Below are positions 14,778-23,737 of a stretch of DNA of 24,140 nucleotides, in pieces. Location: positions 1 through 24,140 of the forward strand of contig BBVC01000071.1 in NCBI GenBank assembly GCA_001192655.1, read 5' to 3'. A program made the translations under genes and the position numbers. Each line of letters opens with the position of its first letter. Position 1 is the first letter of the stretch. The notes beneath the pieces were generated by a model. That model searched no databases and had not been told where the DNA came from. It saw nothing but the letters and a program-made list of their open reading frames with translations. Source of the stretch: Caedimonas varicaedens (GTDB lineage: Bacteria > Pseudomonadota > Alphaproteobacteria > Caedimonadales > Caedimonadaceae).

Positions 14778-15155
14778 ATGAGTCATTTTAAATATATTAT
14801 TGCGCTATGTTATGCTTTTGCGTTTCCAGGTTTTGCAGGCGCTGTCGATATTAATGCAGGGCCTATTTGGAACCAGTCTGACGCCCAAACAAAATGTCCT
14901 GGCGTCTGTTCATCCAAAGGTTATTCCTGGAACGGAAATTGGACAACAACAGACCCAGGAAAGATGTCCGTTTGCGGCTGTGAGGGCGCTACAGACGTTA
15001 ATGCAGGCCCTATCTGGAACAATGCCGATGCCAAGACAAAATGCCCCGGCGTTTGTGAAGAAAAAGGAATGCAATGGAATGGTCAGTGGACTACAACGGT
15101 CCAAGGTGAAATGTCCGTGTGCGGGTGCCTTCCCAAATCAAATCAGGGTGCCTAA
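14778..15155 (+). CDS. Secreted tandem-repeat cysteine-rich protein, MVL-like (mannan-binding lectin family) candidate
   Basis: AAGGAAG upstream of the ATG. Signal peptide MSHFKYIIALCYAFAFPGFAGA. Two 46-aa repeats (nt 14844-14981 and 14991-15128, 33 of 46 identical), each with AGPIWN..DA.TKCPGVC..KG..WNG.WTTT..G.MSVCGC and 4 Cys. The AGP(I/L)W.N..A...P....G.W.GQW.T...G.MSV pattern matches my recollection of the two-repeat Microcystis viridis lectin MVL. Confidence 0.7.
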   Translation: MSHFKYIIALCYAFAFPGFAGAVDINAGPIWNQSDAQTKCPGVCSSKGYSWNGNWTTTDPGKMSVCGCEGATDVNAGPIWNNADAKTKCPGVCEEKGMQWNGQWTTTVQGEMSVCGCLPKSNQGA

Positions 15156-17654: not shown

Positions 17655-18311
17655 ATGAAACTGTCAAACTCTTCAAAACATCTCCCTATAGGCGCCATAC
17701 AGCATCACCGTAATGCTAAGTATACGCGACGCGTGCAGAAATTGCGCAAGGCTCTTCCTTTCTTTGCCAGTATCTTATTTATGCTGATTATCTTCTGGCC
17801 GGAAATGAGAGCGTTTTTAGAAAAATCTTCTCTACCTGAAACAAATATTAAGAAAATGATCCAGGGACGCAACCGGTTGAGTTCCCCACGTTTCCAATCA
17901 ATCGACGAAAAAGGAAGACCCTATTATTTGACTGCCAAAAATGCCATCCAAAAAAATAATCATACCGCAGACCTTGAAGTTCCTTACAGTAAAATGCAGA
18001 TGGAAGATGGCGCTATTGTTGAAATTAATTCAGACATTGGCTTTTACAATGACCTTACCAAAAAATTGGATTATAAGGATAATGTCAAATTAAGAAGCGA
18101 TACAGGCTATGACTTGAGAACATCTCTTGCGCATGTGAATTTAGAGAACAAGCAGGCGGACGGAGACAGAGACGTAGAAGGAGAGGGTCCCACAGGAAAA
18201 ATCTGGGCTCAAGGATTTCATACAACTCAGGGTGGTGTTATCCATTTCAAAGGAAAAAGCCGTTTAATCATTGACAAAAACAAGCAAGCCAGTCCTAGGG
18301 AGAAATCGTGA
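17655..18311 (+). CDS. lptC: LPS export system periplasmic anchor protein LptC
   Basis: N-terminal single TM helix (LPFFASILFMLIIFWP) followed by a beta-rich periplasmic domain. Position between kpsF and lptA. The track start TTG 17646 overlaps the kpsF stop; ATG 17655 is in frame. Confidence 0.7.
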   Translation: MKLSNSSKHLPIGAIQHHRNAKYTRRVQKLRKALPFFASILFMLIIFWPEMRAFLEKSSLPETNIKKMIQGRNRLSSPRFQSIDEKGRPYYLTAKNAIQKNNHTADLEVPYSKMQMEDGAIVEINSDIGFYNDLTKKLDYKDNVKLRSDTGYDLRTSLAHVNLENKQADGDRDVEGEGPTGKIWAQGFHTTQGGVIHFKGKSRLIIDKNKQASPREKS

Positions 18312-19462
18312 AATCAAGCTATCTACTCTATGCTCTCTCCGTACTTTTTCTTTTGGGAGAGGGAGAGAGTCTTTCTTCTAATTCTGCTCATCAAAGTGGC
18401 AATCCTCTGGATATATCACGGGATCTCCCTCTCGAAATCAACTCAGAAAATGGCATTGTTTGCGAAAAAGAAAAAAATATCTGTATAGCATCCGTCAATG
18501 TGATTGCCTCTCACGGCGACTATGTGCTGAATTGTGATACCCTGATTGCCTATTTTCGGGAAGGAAAAGACAAAAAAACAGAACTTTGGCAGGTTGAAGC
18601 TCAAGGAAATGTTATCCTGCATTCAATAAAAGATCATCGTGTGGCTTATGCCCAGCATGGTTTTTATACGTTGGACGATGAGCACGCCATCCTGACAGGC
18701 GATAATTTAAAGCTGGAAGTGGATGATCTGACTGTCACTGCCACAGATGCTCTTGAGTACTTCAAAAGTAAAAACATTGCTCTTGCCAAGGGGGATGCTG
18801 TCGCTGTTAAAAAAGACCAAATGATTAAGGGAGAAACGCTGATCTCTTATTTTCGGGAAGGAAAAGATAAAAAAACAGAGCTTTGGCAACTGGAAGCCCT
18901 GGAAAATGTGACGATCCAGTCGACGACTGATCATCATGTGGCTTATGCTCAGCATGGTCTTTATACATTGGATGATGAACACGCTGTTCTGACAGGCGAT
19001 AATTTAAAACTGGAAGTGGATGATCTGACCGTCACCGCCAGAGATTCCCTTGAGTATTTCAAGAACAAAAATATCGCCTTTGCTAAAGGAAATGCTGCAG
19101 CTACTAAGGAAAATCGACTGATTAAAGGAGAAATGCTTAAGGTTTATTTTGGCGAGAACAACGAGGGCAAGCAGTATATCAAGAAAATCGAGGCCTTTGA
19201 AAACGTGTTGATTTCCACAGAGACTGAAATTGCAACAGGTGATTATGGACGTTATTTGAAAGACGAAGACTTTGCTATCCTCGAGGGAAATGTCAAAATT
19301 AGTCGCGAGGATGGACAGATGGATGGACAATACGCTGAGGTAAAGCTGGACACGGGGGTGAGTAAAATGTTACATCACTCTTCGAATGCTTCAGAAAATC
19401 CCAAAAAAAAAGATGGACGTGTCCATGTTCTGCTTTTACCGAAACAAAAGAAAGCACCGTAA
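18308..19462 (+). CDS. lptA: LptA-like periplasmic LPS transport protein (OstA-like repeats), unusually long at 384 aa
   Basis: GTG start overlapping the lptC stop (GTGA). Signal peptide MKSSYLLYALSVLFLLG. Repeated OstA-type pattern (A.GNV.I......A.A..G.Y......A.L.G). Position between lptC and lptB. Lys-rich C-terminal tail. Confidence 0.75.
   Translation: MKSSYLLYALSVLFLLGEGESLSSNSAHQSGNPLDISRDLPLEINSENGIVCEKEKNICIASVNVIASHGDYVLNCDTLIAYFREGKDKKTELWQVEAQGNVILHSIKDHRVAYAQHGFYTLDDEHAILTGDNLKLEVDDLTVTATDALEYFKSKNIALAKGDAVAVKKDQMIKGETLISYFREGKDKKTELWQLEALENVTIQSTTDHHVAYAQHGLYTLDDEHAVLTGDNLKLEVDDLTVTARDSLEYFKNKNIAFAKGNAAATKENRLIKGEMLKVYFGENNEGKQYIKKIEAFENVLISTETEIATGDYGRYLKDEDFAILEGNVKISREDGQMDGQYAEVKLDTGVSKMLHHSSNASENPKKKDGRVHVLLLPKQKKAP
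18542..19135 (+). repeat. In-frame tandem duplication inside lptA: 2 x 297 bp (99 codons each), followed by a diverged third unit from 19136
   Basis: Unit 1 (18542-18838) is LIAYFREGKDKKTELWQVEAQGNV...MIKGET. Unit 2 (18839-19135) is LISYFREGKDKKTELWQLEALENV...LIKGEM. About 75 of 99 aa are identical by my count, with long identical nucleotide runs (for example TATTTTCGGGAAGGAAAAGA). Confidence 0.9.
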
Positions 19463-19470
19463 CGTAATAG

Positions 19471-20232
19471 ATGCAACCAAATTTAAATAACGATTCTCTT
19501 CCCCTCTCTTCCATGGGATTACAAGCCAGGGATTTATATAAATCTTATCGCAAACGTGCTGTTGTTCAAGGCGTAAGCTTACAGGTACAAAGGGGAGAAG
19601 CTGTAGGACTTTTGGGCCCCAATGGCGCTGGCAAAACTACTTGCTTTTCCATGATTGGCGGACTCGTTAGTCCTGATAAGGGAGCCATTTACCTTGACGG
19701 CCATGACATCAGCTCCCTGCCTATGTATCGACGAGCGCGTCTGGGAATAGGCTATCTTCCCCAGGAAGCTTCTATTTTTCGCGGGATGACTGTTGAAGAC
19801 AATATTCGCGCCATTTTGGAAATTACAGAACCTGACCGGGATAAACGCGAAGATACTCTTAATAATCTGCTTTCTGAATTTATGATTACGCATTTGCGAC
19901 GCTCTTCAGCGCTGACGCTTTCAGGAGGGGAACGTCGACGTGTAGAAATTGCCAGAGCACTTTCGGCTCATCCCCATTTTATTATGCTTGATGAACCTCT
20001 TGCGGGAATTGACCCCATTGCCGTACACGATATTCGCGAGCTGATTTCTCATCTTAAAAATCGTCATATCGGCGTTCTGATTACAGACCATAATGTGCGC
20101 GAAACCCTTGATATTGTAGATAGAGCATATATTATCAATGAGGGTCGTGTTTTAATGGAAGGAAGCCCCTCAGATATCATTGCAGATAAGAATGTGCGGC
20201 GCATTTATTTGGGAGAAAGCTTCAAGCTCTGA
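19471..20232 (+). CDS. lptB: LPS export ABC transporter ATP-binding protein LptB
   Basis: Walker A GPNGAGKTT, Q-loop YLPQE, signature LSGGERRRVEIARAL, Walker B IMLDEPLAGIDP, H-loop ITDHNV. Possible later start at 19513. Confidence 0.9.
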   Translation: MQPNLNNDSLPLSSMGLQARDLYKSYRKRAVVQGVSLQVQRGEAVGLLGPNGAGKTTCFSMIGGLVSPDKGAIYLDGHDISSLPMYRRARLGIGYLPQEASIFRGMTVEDNIRAILEITEPDRDKREDTLNNLLSEFMITHLRRSSALTLSGGERRRVEIARALSAHPHFIMLDEPLAGIDPIAVHDIRELISHLKNRHIGVLITDHNVRETLDIVDRAYIINEGRVLMEGSPSDIIADKNVRRIYLGESFKL

Positions 20233-20271
20233 ACGACATCAAAGAGAATTTTAATTATAAATGACAAATCC

Positions 20272-20300
20272 TTGAGGATTAAAAGTCTAAGGATTATAAT
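20272..20300 (+). promoter_or_regulatory. Candidate sigma70 promoter for hpf
   Basis: TTGAGG (20272-20277), 17-nt spacer, perfect TATAAT (20295-20300), about 70 nt upstream of the hpf ATG. Confidence 0.35.
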
Positions 20301-20371
20301 AAAAACATGAGGGAGATAAAATTTTGGGAAACTTTACTCTCTTTTCATATCTCAGCAAGTAAGGATATAAA

Positions 20372-20950
20372 ATGACTATTTCTGTATCGGGTCGCCACGT
20401 TGACATTAGTGATGCTTTTAAGGGACATGTACTGAACGGATTGAATGAATTGTGGGCGAAACATCATGTAACGCCAGTTGAAGCCCATGTCATTCTTTCC
20501 AAAGAGGGTGTTTTTTTTCTTTGCGACATTTCCGCGAAGCTTGGTAAAAGCTCTTCCTTGCGATGCCAGGGAAAAGGAGATAAAGCTTACTCAAGCTTCG
20601 ACAACGCCCTTGTTACCTTGACGCAGCGGTTAAGACGCCATCGCGAGAAAATCAAGGATCTACACTATCACACCGGACATGACAAGACAGGATCTCTGCC
20701 GCTCTATGTACTGAATGGTACTGCTCCTGACGAGACAGGAAAAGAGTTGGAAGAGCATCATACAGCGGCAATCATTGCTGAAATTAAAACTGAAATCCCC
20801 TTGCTTTCTGTCAGCGAAGCAGTGATGGAGCTTGATTTAACCGATAGTGAAGCTTTCGTCTTCCGCAACAAAACCCACCATAAAATTAATATGATTTACC
20901 GTAGACGCGATGGTCATATTGGATGGATTGATCCTAGTAGTGTGGAATAA
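20372..20950 (+). CDS. hpf: Ribosome hibernation promoting factor, long form (S30AE domain plus C-terminal dimerisation domain)
   Basis: AAGGA upstream of the ATG. N-terminus MTISVSGRHVDISDAFKGHV. C-terminal domain LLSVSEAVMELDLTDSEAFVFRNKTHHKINMIYRRRDGHIGWIDP. 192 aa. Confidence 0.9.
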   Translation: MTISVSGRHVDISDAFKGHVLNGLNELWAKHHVTPVEAHVILSKEGVFFLCDISAKLGKSSSLRCQGKGDKAYSSFDNALVTLTQRLRRHREKIKDLHYHTGHDKTGSLPLYVLNGTAPDETGKELEEHHTAAIIAEIKTEIPLLSVSEAVMELDLTDSEAFVFRNKTHHKINMIYRRRDGHIGWIDPSSVE

Positions 20951-20975
20951 ATGAGAAGATCTGAAGAGTTGTCTC

Positions 20976-21005
20976 TTGACATGGGCGGCGACGTCGCCCT
21001 ATAAT
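20976..21005 (+). promoter_or_regulatory. Consensus sigma70 promoter (TTGACA-N18-TATAAT) with a GC-rich palindrome in the spacer
   Basis: -35 TTGACA at 20976-20981 and -10 TATAAT at 21000-21005. The spacer contains the perfect 12-bp palindrome GGCGACGTCGCC (20987-20998). The same GC hairpin followed by a T6 run could alternatively act as the hpf terminator. Confidence 0.5.
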
Positions 21006-21030
21006 TTTTTAGAAACTTTTTAGAAGTGTT

Positions 21031-21099
21031 ATGAAAACTTATTTCAACAATTTTTTCTTTTCTTACTTTTATTTTGCGCCAACAAGCGCAAAATACTAA
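21031..21099 (+). CDS. Candidate 22-codon Phe/Tyr-rich leader peptide ORF (MKTYFNNFFFSYFYFAPTSAKY)
   Basis: ATG about 25 nt downstream of the consensus -10. 6 Phe and 4 Tyr in 22 codons. Its 3' part overlaps a perfect 9-bp hairpin. It lies upstream of aromatic amino-acid permease genes. Caveats: the region is T-rich, so Phe/Tyr/Leu-rich translations arise in any frame, and the SD (AGAAG) is weak. Confidence 0.35.
   Translation: MKTYFNNFFFSYFYFAPTSAKY
21071..21094 (+). promoter_or_regulatory. Leader hairpin 1
   Basis: ATTTTGCGC (21071-21079) / GCGCAAAAT (21086-21094), a perfect 9-bp stem with the 6-nt loop CAACAA, spanning leader codons 14-22. Confidence 0.5.
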
Positions 21100-21139
21100 T
21101 TCTATTCCCCTTATTCGTTATCTAGTAATCTCATCACTC

Positions 21140-21164
21140 AAATCCCCCCTTAAGGGGTATTTTT
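21140..21164 (+). terminator. Terminator-like hairpin directly upstream of the permease SD (candidate attenuator)
   Basis: Perfect palindrome CCCCTTAAGGGG (21146-21157). Outer AAAT/ATTT pairing is possible, and it is followed by a U-rich run to 21164. The SD AGAGGAAG starts at 21165. The stem is short (4 G-C pairs), so function is uncertain. Confidence 0.3.
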
Positions 21165-21174
21165 AGAGGAAGTT

Positions 21175-22401
21175 ATGAAAAAAGTAATTCTTTCTGCCTG
21201 TCTTGTTGCAGGCACATCCGTAGGAGCCGGTATGATCGCGCTCCCTATGGCGCTCTGTAAAATTGGCATCTTACCCACGATCATTCTGATTTTGGGCGTA
21301 TGGTTTTTTATGTATGTTTCTGGAATTTTGGGAATCGAACTCAACTTGCGGGCGGGACGTGGACTTCCCCTGGGAAAACTTGCACGTCTTTATAGCGGAC
21401 CCATTGCGTCAAGTATCGGAACAATCAGCCTCATTCTTCTGATTTACGCCTTGCTGTGCGCCTACCTCTATGGGGGCGCTTCCATTTTGCAAAGCTTTCT
21501 TGCCTCTCATGTGGGATGGTCATTGGAATTAAAAAGCATTGTTCTTGTATATGCCTTTTTGTTGGGGCTCTTGCTCATTTTTCCTGTGGGATCCATTTTG
21601 CAAGTTAATCGTATTTTATTCACAATTCTGCTGGTTTTTTTCAGTCTTTTAGTCTGTGGGCTTTTGTATAAAATTGAGCTTTCTCATTTGCCTCTTTTAG
21701 ATCATTCGGCTACCAACCTGCGATCCTGGACAGAAGCGATTCCTGTTTTATTTACTTCCTATGGATTTCAGGTCATTTTTCATACACTGACAAATTTTTG
21801 TGATAAAAACCCTGTTATCCTGAAGCGCTCTATTTTTTGGGGGAGTTTGATTCCCGCGATTGTTTATATCATCTGGACGATCAGCACGTTGGGGGTACTT
21901 TATCGCTATGCTCCACAAGAGTATCAGCAATTGCTGGCAGGAAAATTGGAAGTCGGACAATTTATCCAGGCTCTAGCACAAACAGCATCCTGGCCGCTTG
22001 TACAAATCCTTGCCAGTGTCATTTCCATATTAGCGATTATGAAGTCATCCATAGGCGTAGGATTGGGTTTATTCGAAGCCTGGCAAGAACAATTCAATAT
22101 CAGGCGACCTGACAAATCAATCCTGCTAAATATCGTGTGCGTGACGCTCACTCTTGTGCCACCCCTGATCATTGCCCTCTTTGTACCTCAATTATTCCTG
22201 AAGGCATTAAGTTTTGCGGGGATGGTTCTTGTCATCATTGCCCTATTGTTACCTCTCTGGTTGATTCATCAACCAAAGGCACAACAAATAAAGGCCTTTT
22301 ATACTCTTGTTGAACATCGAGGATTACAACTGGTTTGTCTTGGTTTTGGACTCCTGGTTATTTTATGTGAAATGACCAATATGCTGGTATGGAGAGGATA
22401 A
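21175..22401 (+). CDS. Aromatic amino-acid permease, HAAAP family (TyrP/Mtr/TnaB-like), paralogue 1
   Basis: 408 aa and polytopic. The N-terminal signature CLVAGTSVGAGMIALPMAL parallels E. coli TyrP/Mtr (VAGTTIGAGMLAMP). SD AGAGGAAG. Confidence 0.9.
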   Translation: MKKVILSACLVAGTSVGAGMIALPMALCKIGILPTIILILGVWFFMYVSGILGIELNLRAGRGLPLGKLARLYSGPIASSIGTISLILLIYALLCAYLYGGASILQSFLASHVGWSLELKSIVLVYAFLLGLLLIFPVGSILQVNRILFTILLVFFSLLVCGLLYKIELSHLPLLDHSATNLRSWTEAIPVLFTSYGFQVIFHTLTNFCDKNPVILKRSIFWGSLIPAIVYIIWTISTLGVLYRYAPQEYQQLLAGKLEVGQFIQALAQTASWPLVQILASVISILAIMKSSIGVGLGLFEAWQEQFNIRRPDKSILLNIVCVTLTLVPPLIIALFVPQLFLKALSFAGMVLVIIALLLPLWLIHQPKAQQIKAFYTLVEHRGLQLVCLGFGLLVILCEMTNMLVWRG

Positions 22402-23621
22402 TGAAAAAATTAATTCTTTCAATTTGTCTTGTTGCAGGTACATCCATAGGAGCCGGTATGATCGCGCTTCCTATGGCATTGTGCAAAATTGGTATCTTGC
22501 CTACTATTGTCCTGATTTTGGGTGTATGGTTTTTTATGTATCTCTCAAGTCTGATAGGGGCAGAGATAAATCTTCGTGCTGGTCACGGACTTCCTCTGGG
22601 CAAGCTTGGGAGCCTCTATAGCGGTCCTATCGCATCAAGTATTGGAACTGTCAGTCTTATTCTTCTGATTTACGCCCTGCTGTGTGCCTACCTCTATGGG
22701 GGCGCTTCCATTTTGCAAAGCTTTTTTGCCTCTCATCTGGAATGGTCTCTGGAATTAAAAGGCATTGTTCTTATCTACACACTTTTATTGGCGATTGTGC
22801 TAGCAGCCCCTGTGGGATCAGTTCTGGAAGTTAACCGCGTCTTGTTTGGCAGCCTTTTAATCTTTTTTGCGTTGTTGGTTCTTGGGCTTTTGTACAAGGT
22901 AGATTCGACTCATCTTCCTCTTGTAGAGAAATTATCGCTCCAGTTAGACTCGTGGACAGGGGCTATTCCTTTGCTGTCAACGTCTTTTGGATTTCAGGTT
23001 GTTTTGCATACCCTAACAAATTTTTGCGATAGAGACCCTGTACTCTTAAAACGCTCTATTTTCTGGGGAAGCCTGATTCCCACGATTGTTTATATCCTCT
23101 GGACAATCAGCACACTAGGAGTTCTTTATCACTTTGCTCCGCTAGAGTATCAGCAATTGCTGGTGGGAAAATTGGAAGTCGGCCAATTTATTCAGGCTCT
23201 GGCACAAACAGCATCCTGGCCTCTTGTCCAAATGCTTGCTGCTGTGATCTCGATTGTTGCCATCGTTAAATCTTCTGTTGGGATAGGATTGGCCTTATCC
23301 GATGCCTGGCAAGAGCAATTCGGAAAATTGAATGCCAAAAGGCAGAATACCCTGAAGATGGTATCGGTCGTTCTCACACTCATCCCACCTCTTGGAATGG
23401 CGCTCTTTGTCCCTCAGTTATTCCTTAAAGCCTTGAGGTTTGGTGGAATGGTCTCTATTGTGATTGCAATTTTGCTGCCATTATGGCTGATTACCCGTCC
23501 AAAAGCCCAGGAAAGGAAGGTTTTTTACGCTCTGACCCAACGTCAAGACATTCAGATGCTCTGCCTTGGTTTTGGTATTTTGGTCATTTTATGTGAGGTG
23601 ATCAATATAATCATAAATTAG
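22401..23621 (+). CDS. Aromatic amino-acid permease, HAAAP family, paralogue 2
   Basis: Start ATG 22401 shares one base with the TAA of paralogue 1 (TAATG) and is preceded by GGAGAGGA. The track ORF starts 4 codons earlier. About 70-80% aa identity to paralogue 1 by eye, with long identical DNA stretches. Confidence 0.9.
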   Translation: MKKLILSICLVAGTSIGAGMIALPMALCKIGILPTIVLILGVWFFMYLSSLIGAEINLRAGHGLPLGKLGSLYSGPIASSIGTVSLILLIYALLCAYLYGGASILQSFFASHLEWSLELKGIVLIYTLLLAIVLAAPVGSVLEVNRVLFGSLLIFFALLVLGLLYKVDSTHLPLVEKLSLQLDSWTGAIPLLSTSFGFQVVLHTLTNFCDRDPVLLKRSIFWGSLIPTIVYILWTISTLGVLYHFAPLEYQQLLVGKLEVGQFIQALAQTASWPLVQMLAAVISIVAIVKSSVGIGLALSDAWQEQFGKLNAKRQNTLKMVSVVLTLIPPLGMALFVPQLFLKALRFGGMVSIVIAILLPLWLITRPKAQERKVFYALTQRQDIQMLCLGFGILVILCEVINIIIN

Positions 23622-23635
23622 GTATACCCAAAGGA

Positions 23636-23737
23636 TTTCAAAATCTGAGAGACGGACGAGCGGTGAGTCCCGCACAGTGTACATGAAATACGTGAGCAGG
23701 AACGAATTCCAAAGTCCAACGACCTCAGATTTTGAAA
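23636..23737. repeat. Palindromic intergenic repeat element, copy B (about 102 bp)
   Basis: Perfect 14-bp terminal inverted repeat TTTCAAAATCTGAG (23636-23649) / CTCAGATTTTGAAA (23724-23737). The core at 23663-23708 (GTGAGTCCCGCACAGTGTACATGAAATACGTGAGCAGGAACGAATT) is related to copy A. It lies between convergent 3' ends. Confidence 0.6.

Follow-up and report, generated by a model that had tools for sequence, protein, structure and literature searches.

A conserved leader-peptide ORF rich in phenylalanine and tyrosine codons upstream of tandem permease genes in Caedimonas varicaedens: a candidate attenuator with no predicted antiterminator

Results

The permease leader and its short ORF

The window analysed here, i.e. 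the whole 24,140-nucleotide (nt) stretch of Caedimonas varicaedens DNA (contig BBVC01000071.1), carries two tandem genes for putative aromatic amino acid permeases, preceded by a leader that contains a short open reading frame (ORF) dense in phenylalanine (Phe) and tyrosine (Tyr) codons. An earlier note on this DNA had proposed that the ORF is the leader peptide of a pheL/trpL-type attenuator. The promoter, the ORF, the two hairpins (H1, and H2 with its U-run), the Shine-Dalgarno sequence (SD) and the double CCCCTTA that it described are all present. They are listed below with the other elements of the locus; all lie on the forward (+) strand.

20976-21005, +, sigma-70-type promoter of the leader-permease transcript (consensus score 12/12)
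20983-20999, +, GC hairpin GGGCGGCGACGTCGCCC in the promoter spacer (7 pairs, 6 of them GC), followed by TATAATTTTTT (21000-21010)
21031-21099, +, leader-peptide ORF of 22 codons plus TAA, MKTYFNNFFFSYFYFAPTSAKY, conserved in frame in related leaders
21040-21075, +, aromatic codon run (codons 4-15, 10/12 Phe or Tyr), the proposed stalling sensor
21035-21166, +, open +1 frame (43 codons) that runs on from leader codon 2 and crosses H1, the spacer and H2; its TAG (21164-21166) abuts the permease SD
21071-21094, +, hairpin H1, perfect over 9 bp: ATTTTGCGC (21071-21079), loop CAACAA, GCGCAAAAT (21086-21094)
21095-21145, +, pyrimidine-rich, G-poor, rut-like spacer with a conserved TTCCCCTTA motif (21105-21113)
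21146-21164, +, hairpin H2, CCCC-TTAA-GGGG (CCCCTTAAGGGG, 21146-21157), and TATTTTT (21158-21164); a weak terminator-like or pause element
21165-21177, +, SD AGAGGAAG (21165-21172) and ATG of permease 1 (21175)
21175-22401, +, permease 1, 408 amino acids (aa), HAAAP / Trp_Tyr_perm family
22401-23621, +, permease 2, likely start ATG 22401, with no leader of its own

The ORF starts at ATG 21031, stops at TAA 21097-21099 and encodes 6 Phe and 4 Tyr residues. To estimate how readily such an ORF arises by chance, we shuffled positions 21006-21174 in 20,000 replicates that preserved the dinucleotide content. This yielded 86 cases (0.4%) of an ORF that began with ATG, spanned 10 or more codons and encoded no fewer than 10 Phe, Tyr or tryptophan (Trp) residues, and a single case of at least 9 aromatic residues within 12 consecutive codons. 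The earlier note had cautioned that T-rich sequence inflates the aromatic content of every frame. This caution is justified for Phe, which occurs 3 and 5 times in frames +1 and +2, but not for Tyr, whose codons number 4, 0 and 0 in frames 0, +1 and +2. The leader as a whole folds somewhat better than its shuffles (z = -2.5).

Conservation of the ORF and its reading frame

The upstream regions of related permease genes were aligned, giving a set of 14 leaders: that of the window and 13 others (L001, L002, L003, L005, L012, L066, L090, L091, L095, L096, L097, L100 and L101). The latter precede permeases about 45-68% identical to those of the window, in Holosporales-like alphaproteobacteria. The gene neighbourhoods are unrelated, which indicates that the leader travels with the permease. 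The leaders share a common layout, which from 5' to 3' consists of promoter, ORF, aromatic run, H1, C-rich and G-poor spacer with CCCC, H2, U-rich stretch and SD, and their mean column identity at the nucleotide level is 57%. Four conspecific contigs (L081-L083 and L089) carry no conservation signal because, belonging to the same species, they are 98-99% identical throughout.

The ORF and its frame were kept in 14/14 leaders, with a length of 15-22 codons and an ATG start (once GTG); examples of the relatives' peptides are MMLNISSVFFCRYFSFAL, MMKKNLFSYFYTAFYFAL, METVLSFFFFSELYYAL, MKKHLKYSFFSYFQFAR and MMLKSFSFSPFSFAL. In every leader the aromatic run ends at an invariant in-frame alanine (Ala) codon, GCG, which lies 39, 42, 45 or 48 nt from the start codon, i.e. 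in phase 0 in 14/14 cases; the length changes are therefore of whole codons. The residue immediately before this Ala (-1) is aromatic in all 14 peptides and that at -3 in most. The Tyr codons are again specific to the frame, as TAY triplets across the leaders number 13/3/4 in frames 0/+1/+2, or 11/2/3 when counted over 8 lineages (p = 0.004). In L005 and L091 a Tyr UAU replaces a Phe UUU inside the H1 stem and creates a mismatch; because this substitution costs a pair, it suggests that aromatic coding has been selected over pairing.

We also counted ATG-initiated small ORFs (sORFs) upstream of the permease in 89 non-redundant loci, comparing the sense strand with the antisense strand and with shuffles. 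sORFs with at least 5/8 aromatic residues were present in 19 loci on the sense strand, compared to 1 on the antisense strand and 1.75 +/- 1.2 in shuffles; for a threshold of at least 6/8 the corresponding figures were 11, 0 and 0.23. Taken with the conservation of the frame, these comparisons of sequence give good support to the view that the ORF is a genuine conserved leader-peptide gene and not a by-product of T-rich sequence.

The leader is absent upstream of several close permease homologues (L086, at 73% identity, L092, L093/L094 and L099), and in L088 only a 12-codon ORF, MFFFCLKIISCF, precedes the permease. A covariance model of the module formed by the ORF end, H1 and the CCCC motif recovered only the known members; scanning the window and 545 kb of related loci with it brought up no additional copy. 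A metagenome scan returned 6 loci only. Searches of Rfam (Phe_leader, other leader, riboswitch and T-box families) gave no relevant match at E up to 10 in 20200-21400, and in 11 related loci the only hit to reach the gathering score was a tRNA.

The hairpin at the end of the ORF

The GCG that forms the invariant Ala codon is also the first triplet of the GCGC...GCGC core of H1. This core is invariant in the 12 aligned members and is present in L100 and L101 as well. The two arms pair in 86% of alignment cells, compared to at most 56% when the partner is slid, and the leader stop codon lies inside the H1 loop in 10/14 leaders and just after H1 in the others, among them the window (3 nt past the hairpin). 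Since the core is invariant, the case for an RNA structure rests on pairing potential and on loop-length variation and not on covariation. The loop varies between 4 and 7 nt across members, which argues for an RNA element rather than a protein operator. A complement of the GCGC core of the 3' arm was sought downstream in the leader and was not found.

The spacer, H2 and the permease ribosome-binding site

Between H1 and H2 the RNA is rich in pyrimidines and poor in G. The ratio of C to G over 21031-21156 is 4.5, which places it among the highest 0.13% of all 78-nt windows on the two strands and makes the leader the second-highest region of the whole window on either strand. The sole region above it (ratio 12) is 6728-7030, a 100-aa ORF with a Pro/Ser-rich tail (SSPPSSTSPAPQPPSPPPVPQRR). 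The spacers contain more C than G in 14/14 leaders (C 17-29%, G 5-13%), and the CCCC motif is kept in the relatives, 15-20 nt farther downstream.

H2 of the window consists of a 4-bp GC stem with an AU extension (-7.1 kcal/mol) and is no more stable than its shuffles (z = -0.6). A hairpin of differing sequence occupies the same site in 11/12 relatives tested (mean z = -1.6, down to -4.8), with stems such as UCUGA/UCAGA, ACCUGAUC/GAUCAGGU, UUGACU/AGUCAA and CCUCCGA/UCGGAGG. In the members with the strongest H2, the U-rich tail begins 4-9 nt from the stem, and the geometry is therefore poor for an intrinsic terminator. In the minimum free energy (MFE) fold of the window leader, the distal CCCCUUA pairs with UAAGGGG. 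The earlier note had remarked that CCCCTTA occurs twice (21107-21113 and 21146-21152), which would give the GGGG segment two alternative partners. This turned out to be peculiar to the window: the duplication is not conserved and H2 differs in the relatives. Indeed, no other member has a G-rich H2 for which the conserved CCCC motif could compete.

The permease SD and start codon were not less accessible than in dinucleotide-shuffled leaders (mean z = -0.25). We rejected sequestration of the SD by the CCCC motif or by the Phe codons, a pairing that does appear in MFE folds, because it was no stronger than in these shuffles. Pairing between the A-tract that follows H1 and the U-tract was also discarded; it arose in some constrained folds (L001, L096, L003 and the window) but was weak, and its positions were inconsistent.

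The promoter and the permease genes

The promoter of the window comprises TTGACA (20976-20981), an 18-nt spacer and TATAAT (21000-21005), and a TTGACA-type promoter lies directly 5' of the leader ORF in the relatives too. In 10/14 leaders the -10 element ends only 6-9 nt before the leader ATG (L002, L005, L091, L095, L096, L100 and L101, and probably L001, L090 and L097), so that in most members the ORF would be leaderless or nearly so; the window, with 25 nt, is an exception. The GC hairpin in the promoter spacer of the window, in which strain variants make only G-C to G-U changes, is predicted to be terminator-like for the upstream hpf gene. One stretch of DNA could thus both terminate hpf and provide the -10 region of the permease promoter.

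In the window, whose G+C content is ~42%, the genes run in the order kdsD, lptC, lptA-like, lptB, a long hpf and the two permease genes, with a spacer of 224 nt between hpf and permease 1. The ATG of permease 2 overlaps the TAA of permease 1 as TAATG, with GGAGAGGA just upstream, and for this reason we treat the two genes as one translationally coupled unit behind the hpf-permease spacer; the equivalent ATG is the called start of permease 2 in one conspecific contig. The two proteins are 72% identical to each other. Both match TIGR00837 (aromatic amino acid transporter) over their full length (2.7e-70 and 6.1e-63), below the curated subfamily cut-off, and both match the TyrP, Mtr and TnaB models over their full length, again below the curated cut-offs. 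Pfam PF03222 is recorded on all of the permease homologues. The permeases of the nearest species representatives, which are uncultured alphaproteobacteria, one of them labelled Holosporales, are only ~60% identical, and remoter homologues occur in Chlamydiota, Rickettsiales and Finniella-like bacteria, i.e. in host-associated lineages.

Several observations concern the arrangement of the permease genes. Two relatives have two permease paralogues at separate loci (L001 and L005 in the metagenome-assembled genome NCGZ01, L002 and L004 in the metagenome-assembled genome CANMHY01). Each locus of NCGZ01 has its own leader, and the two peptides differ; the window has tandem genes and one leader. L004 ends at a contig edge, so that only the 3' part of its leader is visible. 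In the conspecific contig L082 a single hybrid permease occupies the place of window positions 21175-23621, its 5' part corresponding to permease 1 and its 3' part to permease 2, so that either the tandem paralogues have recombined in the population or the assembly has collapsed them. Just 3' of permease 2 there is a long-range inverted repeat, CAAAATCTGAG (23639-23649) and CTCAGATTTTG (23725-23735), and slightly beyond it, from ~23900, identity to the conspecific contigs falls sharply.

Predicted effects of ribosome position in three classes of leader

We modelled the consequences of ribosome stalling by folding transcripts cut before the 3' arm of the terminator, with a ribosome footprint placed either (i) at the first aromatic codon, or (ii) at the stop codon. 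Equilibrium folds of the full-length leaders with ribosome masks were dropped in favour of these truncated transcripts, because they predicted the terminator even for textbook leaders of the Chlamydiota.

Those Chlamydiota leaders served as the positive control. A Phe-run ORF precedes a homologous permease in eight loci (L008, L009, L013, L021, L023, L025, L035 and L057), an example of the peptide being MKTFAFNNFFFFFTLPERREVL and of the leader L057:2858-2978. Downstream of the ORF come a conserved GGCGGGAGG, a small hairpin that covaries and a terminator, CCCCGCC-AAAA-GCGGGG-T9, that is nearly invariant; the end of the ORF itself overlaps an antiterminator strand, GGCGGG. In case (i) the 5' arm of the terminator was paired with GGCGGG at a probability of 0.83-0.99, and in case (ii) at 0.04-0.33, in 6/6 loci. 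The Chlamydiota leaders are therefore predicted to be textbook terminator/antiterminator attenuators in which starvation turns the permease on. They resemble the window leader in having an ORF rich in Phe and Tyr at the same position before a homologous permease (42-46% identity); however, the two have no sequence similarity, and the covariance model of the window's class misses them.

In contrast to these controls, the H2 5' arm of the window was paired at only 0.00-0.01 in every ribosome state. A starvation-type switch was sought in 12 members of the window's class and none was found, the H2 5' arm being unpaired or unchanged; in L090/L097 H2 changed in the opposite sense, and the behaviour of L003 was inconsistent. 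The author of the earlier note had been unable to establish a convincing mutually exclusive antiterminator by eye, and the folds predict none either. With ribosome footprints taken into account, then, the alternative folds give no antiterminator in the window's class, and the pheL/trpL-type read-out that had been suggested finds no counterpart in them.

A third type of leader is present in Finniella-like alphaproteobacteria (L044:2823-2896, L060:2812-2885, L058:2812-2885, L051:2814-2887, L055:2770-2843 and L074:2814-2887). Here the ORF is also rich in aromatic codons, and at its end lies a covarying CCC/GGG hairpin whose loop contains, or is close to, the stop codon; the hairpins vary on both sides (UCGCCC/GGGUGG, UUUCCC/GGGAUA and UUACCC/GGGUAU). 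This covariation was read from the raw sequences, as MAFFT misaligned the hairpins. The sister genomes L059, L061 and L077 have the same proximal 5' untranslated region without the leader module.

Discussion

A proposed mechanism

The conservation of the frame and of its Tyr bias makes it quite probable that the ORF is a functional, aromatic-sensing leader peptide, and this part of the earlier proposal of pheL/trpL-type attenuation stands, whereas its hairpin read-out, for which no switch is predicted, is not supported. We propose that the ORF reports the charging of Phe-tRNA and Tyr-tRNA, and that both permeases, transcribed from the promoter at 20976-21005, would be under its control. Under shortage of Phe or Tyr, the ribosome would stall in the run at 21040-21075 and permease expression would rise; when both are plentiful, it would reach the stop codon just past H1 and leave, and most transcripts would end early in the leader. 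Stalling in the aromatic run is inferred, and the direction of the response, i.e. scarcity raising permease expression, is suggested by analogy with the Chlamydiota homologues.

In the lineage of the window, the read-out would not involve competition between terminator and antiterminator hairpins but factor-dependent (Rho-type) termination on a pyrimidine-rich leader with more C than G, split by H1 in the manner of a hairpin-split rut site. Rho loading would be impeded by a ribosome that is halted on the 5' half or that translates beyond it, and H2 with its U-run would act as a pause or release point. Starvation-dependent read-through would then need no antiterminator, because the ribosome itself would occupy the 5' half of the RNA that resembles a Rho-loading site. 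Granted a functional sensing leader, this read-out, suggested by base composition, is the one that we tentatively favour, although with less than an even chance. The scheme as a whole, in which a sensor of Phe- and Tyr-tRNA charging controls two coupled permeases, with Rho favoured as the means of termination, stands in our judgement at evenly balanced chances. It is possible, although we think it doubtful, that these leaders represent a distinct attenuator design without hairpin competition, in which a stalled ribosome occludes a split Rho site or a +1 frameshift carries it to the permease ribosome-binding site, and which recurs in the Finniella-like bacteria.

Several findings weigh against this proposal. 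H1 shows almost no covariation, with one compensatory change only; L101 retains the full architecture with only one Phe and one Tyr codon; and the loci compared are not phylogenetically independent. In most relatives the spacer is more U-rich than C-rich, C accounting for the 17-29% given above. It is also not obvious that occlusion of Rho would suffice, because a stalled ribosome covers the RNA only as far as the H1 loop and does not reach the CCCC motif. Finally, the combination of a hairpin with a downstream U-rich stretch resembles an intrinsic terminator, and this resemblance would favour a hairpin-based mechanism, one that the folds did not reveal.

Alternative explanations

The last point leads to the classical scheme, in which H2 and the U-run would form an intrinsic terminator and either CCCCTTA at 21107-21113 or the freed 3' arm of H1 would act as antiterminator when the ribosome stalls. 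This would account for the hairpin and U-run directly before the SD, for the hairpin at the same place in 11/12 relatives tested, for the MFE pairing of CCCCUUA with UAAGGGG, and for the layout of H1, whose 5' arm carries regulatory codons and whose loop lies close to the stop, as in the 1:2 pause hairpin of trpL; the homologous Chlamydiota permeases, moreover, are predicted to have exactly such a mechanism. However, the 5' arm of H2 has no upstream partner in any ribosome state, while the controls switch in 6/6 cases. The distal copy of CCCCTTA would pair with the same 3' strand before the same U-run, so that the hairpin would not be removed, and H2 is not G-rich in the other members, which leaves CCCC nothing to compete for there. 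With the U-run 4-9 nt off the strong H2 stems and a window H2 no more stable than shuffles, we consider the classical scheme unlikely. A ribosome that slips into the +1 frame at hungry codons in the U-rich run would instead melt H2, shield the RNA from Rho and reach the permease start. Of the first members, 8/12 have a +1 frame that stays open until 16 nt or less before the permease ATG, compared to 3.2 expected from shuffles of the spacer (P ~0.004, uncorrected), whereas the +2 frame is open in only 2/12; in L005 the +1 frame ends at a TGA that overlaps the permease ATG (ATGA). Hungry-codon slippage on UUU-rich runs is plausible and has a precedent in E. coli pheL, where 15% +1 frameshifting has been measured (PMC3082878), but its authors judged it incidental (PMC3082878). 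The +1 frame is closed in L100, L101, L003, L090/L097 and L091, and thus open in 8/14 leaders including the window (7/13 relatives); counted by lineage, ~5/9 are open, which is not significant (P ~0.07), and a pyrimidine-rich spacer is poor in stop codons anyway. We give frameshifting a very slim chance.

Control might also be exerted on translation or mRNA stability, with a stalled ribosome freeing the permease SD from the U-rich leader or protecting the 5' end of the mRNA. MFE folds do often pair the SD with leader codons or CCCC, and where the ORF follows the -10 element by 6-9 nt (10/14), stalling would place the ribosome right at the 5' end of the transcript. Against this, SD accessibility was no lower than in shuffles and no conserved partner of the SD was found, and such control is very unlikely. 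A TnaC-like arrest peptide, on which free Phe or Tyr would stall the ribosome at the ORF end, block Rho and so let the substrate induce the permeases, would fit the C-terminal aromatic-Ala-Leu-stop kept in most relatives, the excess of C over G after the stop and the membership of tnaB in the same transporter family. Runs of 4-10 codons for these same amino acids, however, mark charging sensors and not arrest peptides. The Ala-Leu codons double as the H1 stem, so that their conservation is explained by the RNA, and in the window, L066 and L012 the ORF continues for 3-7 codons with unrelated residues; as the Chlamydiota homologues are also predicted to follow a starvation logic, an arrest peptide is highly improbable. 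Lastly, there may be no sensor at all: the T-rich leader would contain the ORF by accident, and H1 would be either an operator palindrome in the DNA or a hairpin that stabilises the RNA. H1 is indeed an almost invariant palindrome essentially without covariation, T-rich DNA gives Phe codons in all frames, and L101 has few aromatic codons. We nevertheless regard this as quite unlikely, as the frame is kept in 14/14 leaders with indels only in multiples of three, the Tyr codons are specific to the frame, sORFs are enriched tenfold on the sense strand over controls, the H1 loop of 4-7 nt is unlike that of a protein operator, and the Finniella-like leaders repeat the design with a hairpin that covaries.

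Comparison with known leader-peptide systems

Leader-peptide attenuation has been described mostly for biosynthetic operons and aminoacyl-tRNA synthetases of free-living bacteria. The window leader shares with E. coli pheL, upstream of pheA (and with pheST), a 5' ORF with a run of Phe codons, a hairpin over the ORF end and a hairpin with U-run before the gene, and the presumed signal, the charging of Phe-tRNA, is also the same. It differs in that the genes controlled encode importers instead of biosynthetic enzymes or a tRNA synthetase, that Tyr and Phe codons are mixed, and that no antiterminator is predicted. It also belongs to another phylogenetic group (a Holosporales-like alphaproteobacterium), and its relatives are predicted to be nearly leaderless. 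H1 resembles the 1:2 pause hairpin of E. coli trpL, with regulatory codons in and before the 5' arm and the stop in or next to the loop (10/14 members), but there is no equivalent of the 2:3 and 3:4 pairings, nothing downstream being complementary to the GCGC core of the 3' arm.

The earlier note had cited TnaC and tnaB as a precedent within the transporter family. In the Rho-dependent tnaC-tnaAB system, too, a leader peptide precedes a permease of this family (tnaB) and a region with more C than G follows the ORF, and a parked ribosome hindering Rho may be a shared mechanism. TnaC, however, responds to free Trp by way of a conserved motif of the nascent peptide that is located at the stop codon, whereas the window leader has a codon run and no conserved peptide beyond the part dictated by the hairpin. 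When a conserved arrest motif of the TnaC type was sought at the stop of the related peptides, only aromatic richness and the Ala(-Leu) encoded by H1 were found, and the end of the ORF varies. The precedent thus applies to the gene family, and perhaps to Rho, but not to the peptide, which is without the conserved features of TnaC.

In the rut site of lambda tR1, the rutA and rutB segments flank the boxB hairpin (rutA - boxB hairpin - rutB). Both this site and the window leader are pyrimidine-rich, G-poor RNA broken by one small hairpin, an analogy of layout only. The uORFC-13-1 motif upstream of aroF in Acholeplasma is a candidate upstream ORF with Phe codons by a terminator, proposed from comparative genomics alone (PMC8632094); it differs from the window leader in gene, taxon and architecture. 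Full-text searches of the literature, together with papers on chlamydial Trp regulation, a genome-wide attenuator survey, work on pheL and surveys of upstream ORF motifs, turned up no description of such an aromatic leader peptide preceding tyrP-like permeases, although coverage was incomplete and this is absence of evidence only. The textbook attenuator that precedes tyrP-like permeases in the Chlamydiota likewise has no Rfam family.

If the proposal is correct, leader-peptide attenuation acts here on importers of host-dependent bacteria (Holosporales-like, Chlamydiota and Finniella-like), in which uptake replaces synthesis, and the design that recurs in the Finniella-like leaders could be a general solution of intracellular alphaproteobacteria for tuning amino acid import. 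The codon content of the leader would predict Phe and Tyr as the physiological substrates of these uncharacterised TyrP-like permeases. A class of leader without an antiterminator and a sister class with a predicted switch on homologous genes also offer a natural comparison for how ribosome stalling is read out.

Other features of the window

Two other genes of the window encode proteins with internal repeats. The LptA-like protein (18308-19462, 384 aa) contains an internal tandem duplication of ~100 residues, in which the pattern ...YFREGKDKKTELWQ.EA..NV... occurs twice, and the LptA model matches it in two stretches. The small ORF at 14778-15155 combines an N-terminal hydrophobic, signal-peptide-like segment with two copies of a Cys-rich repeat of ~45 residues (D.NAGPIWN..DA.TKCPGVC..KG..WNG.WTTT...MSVCGC).

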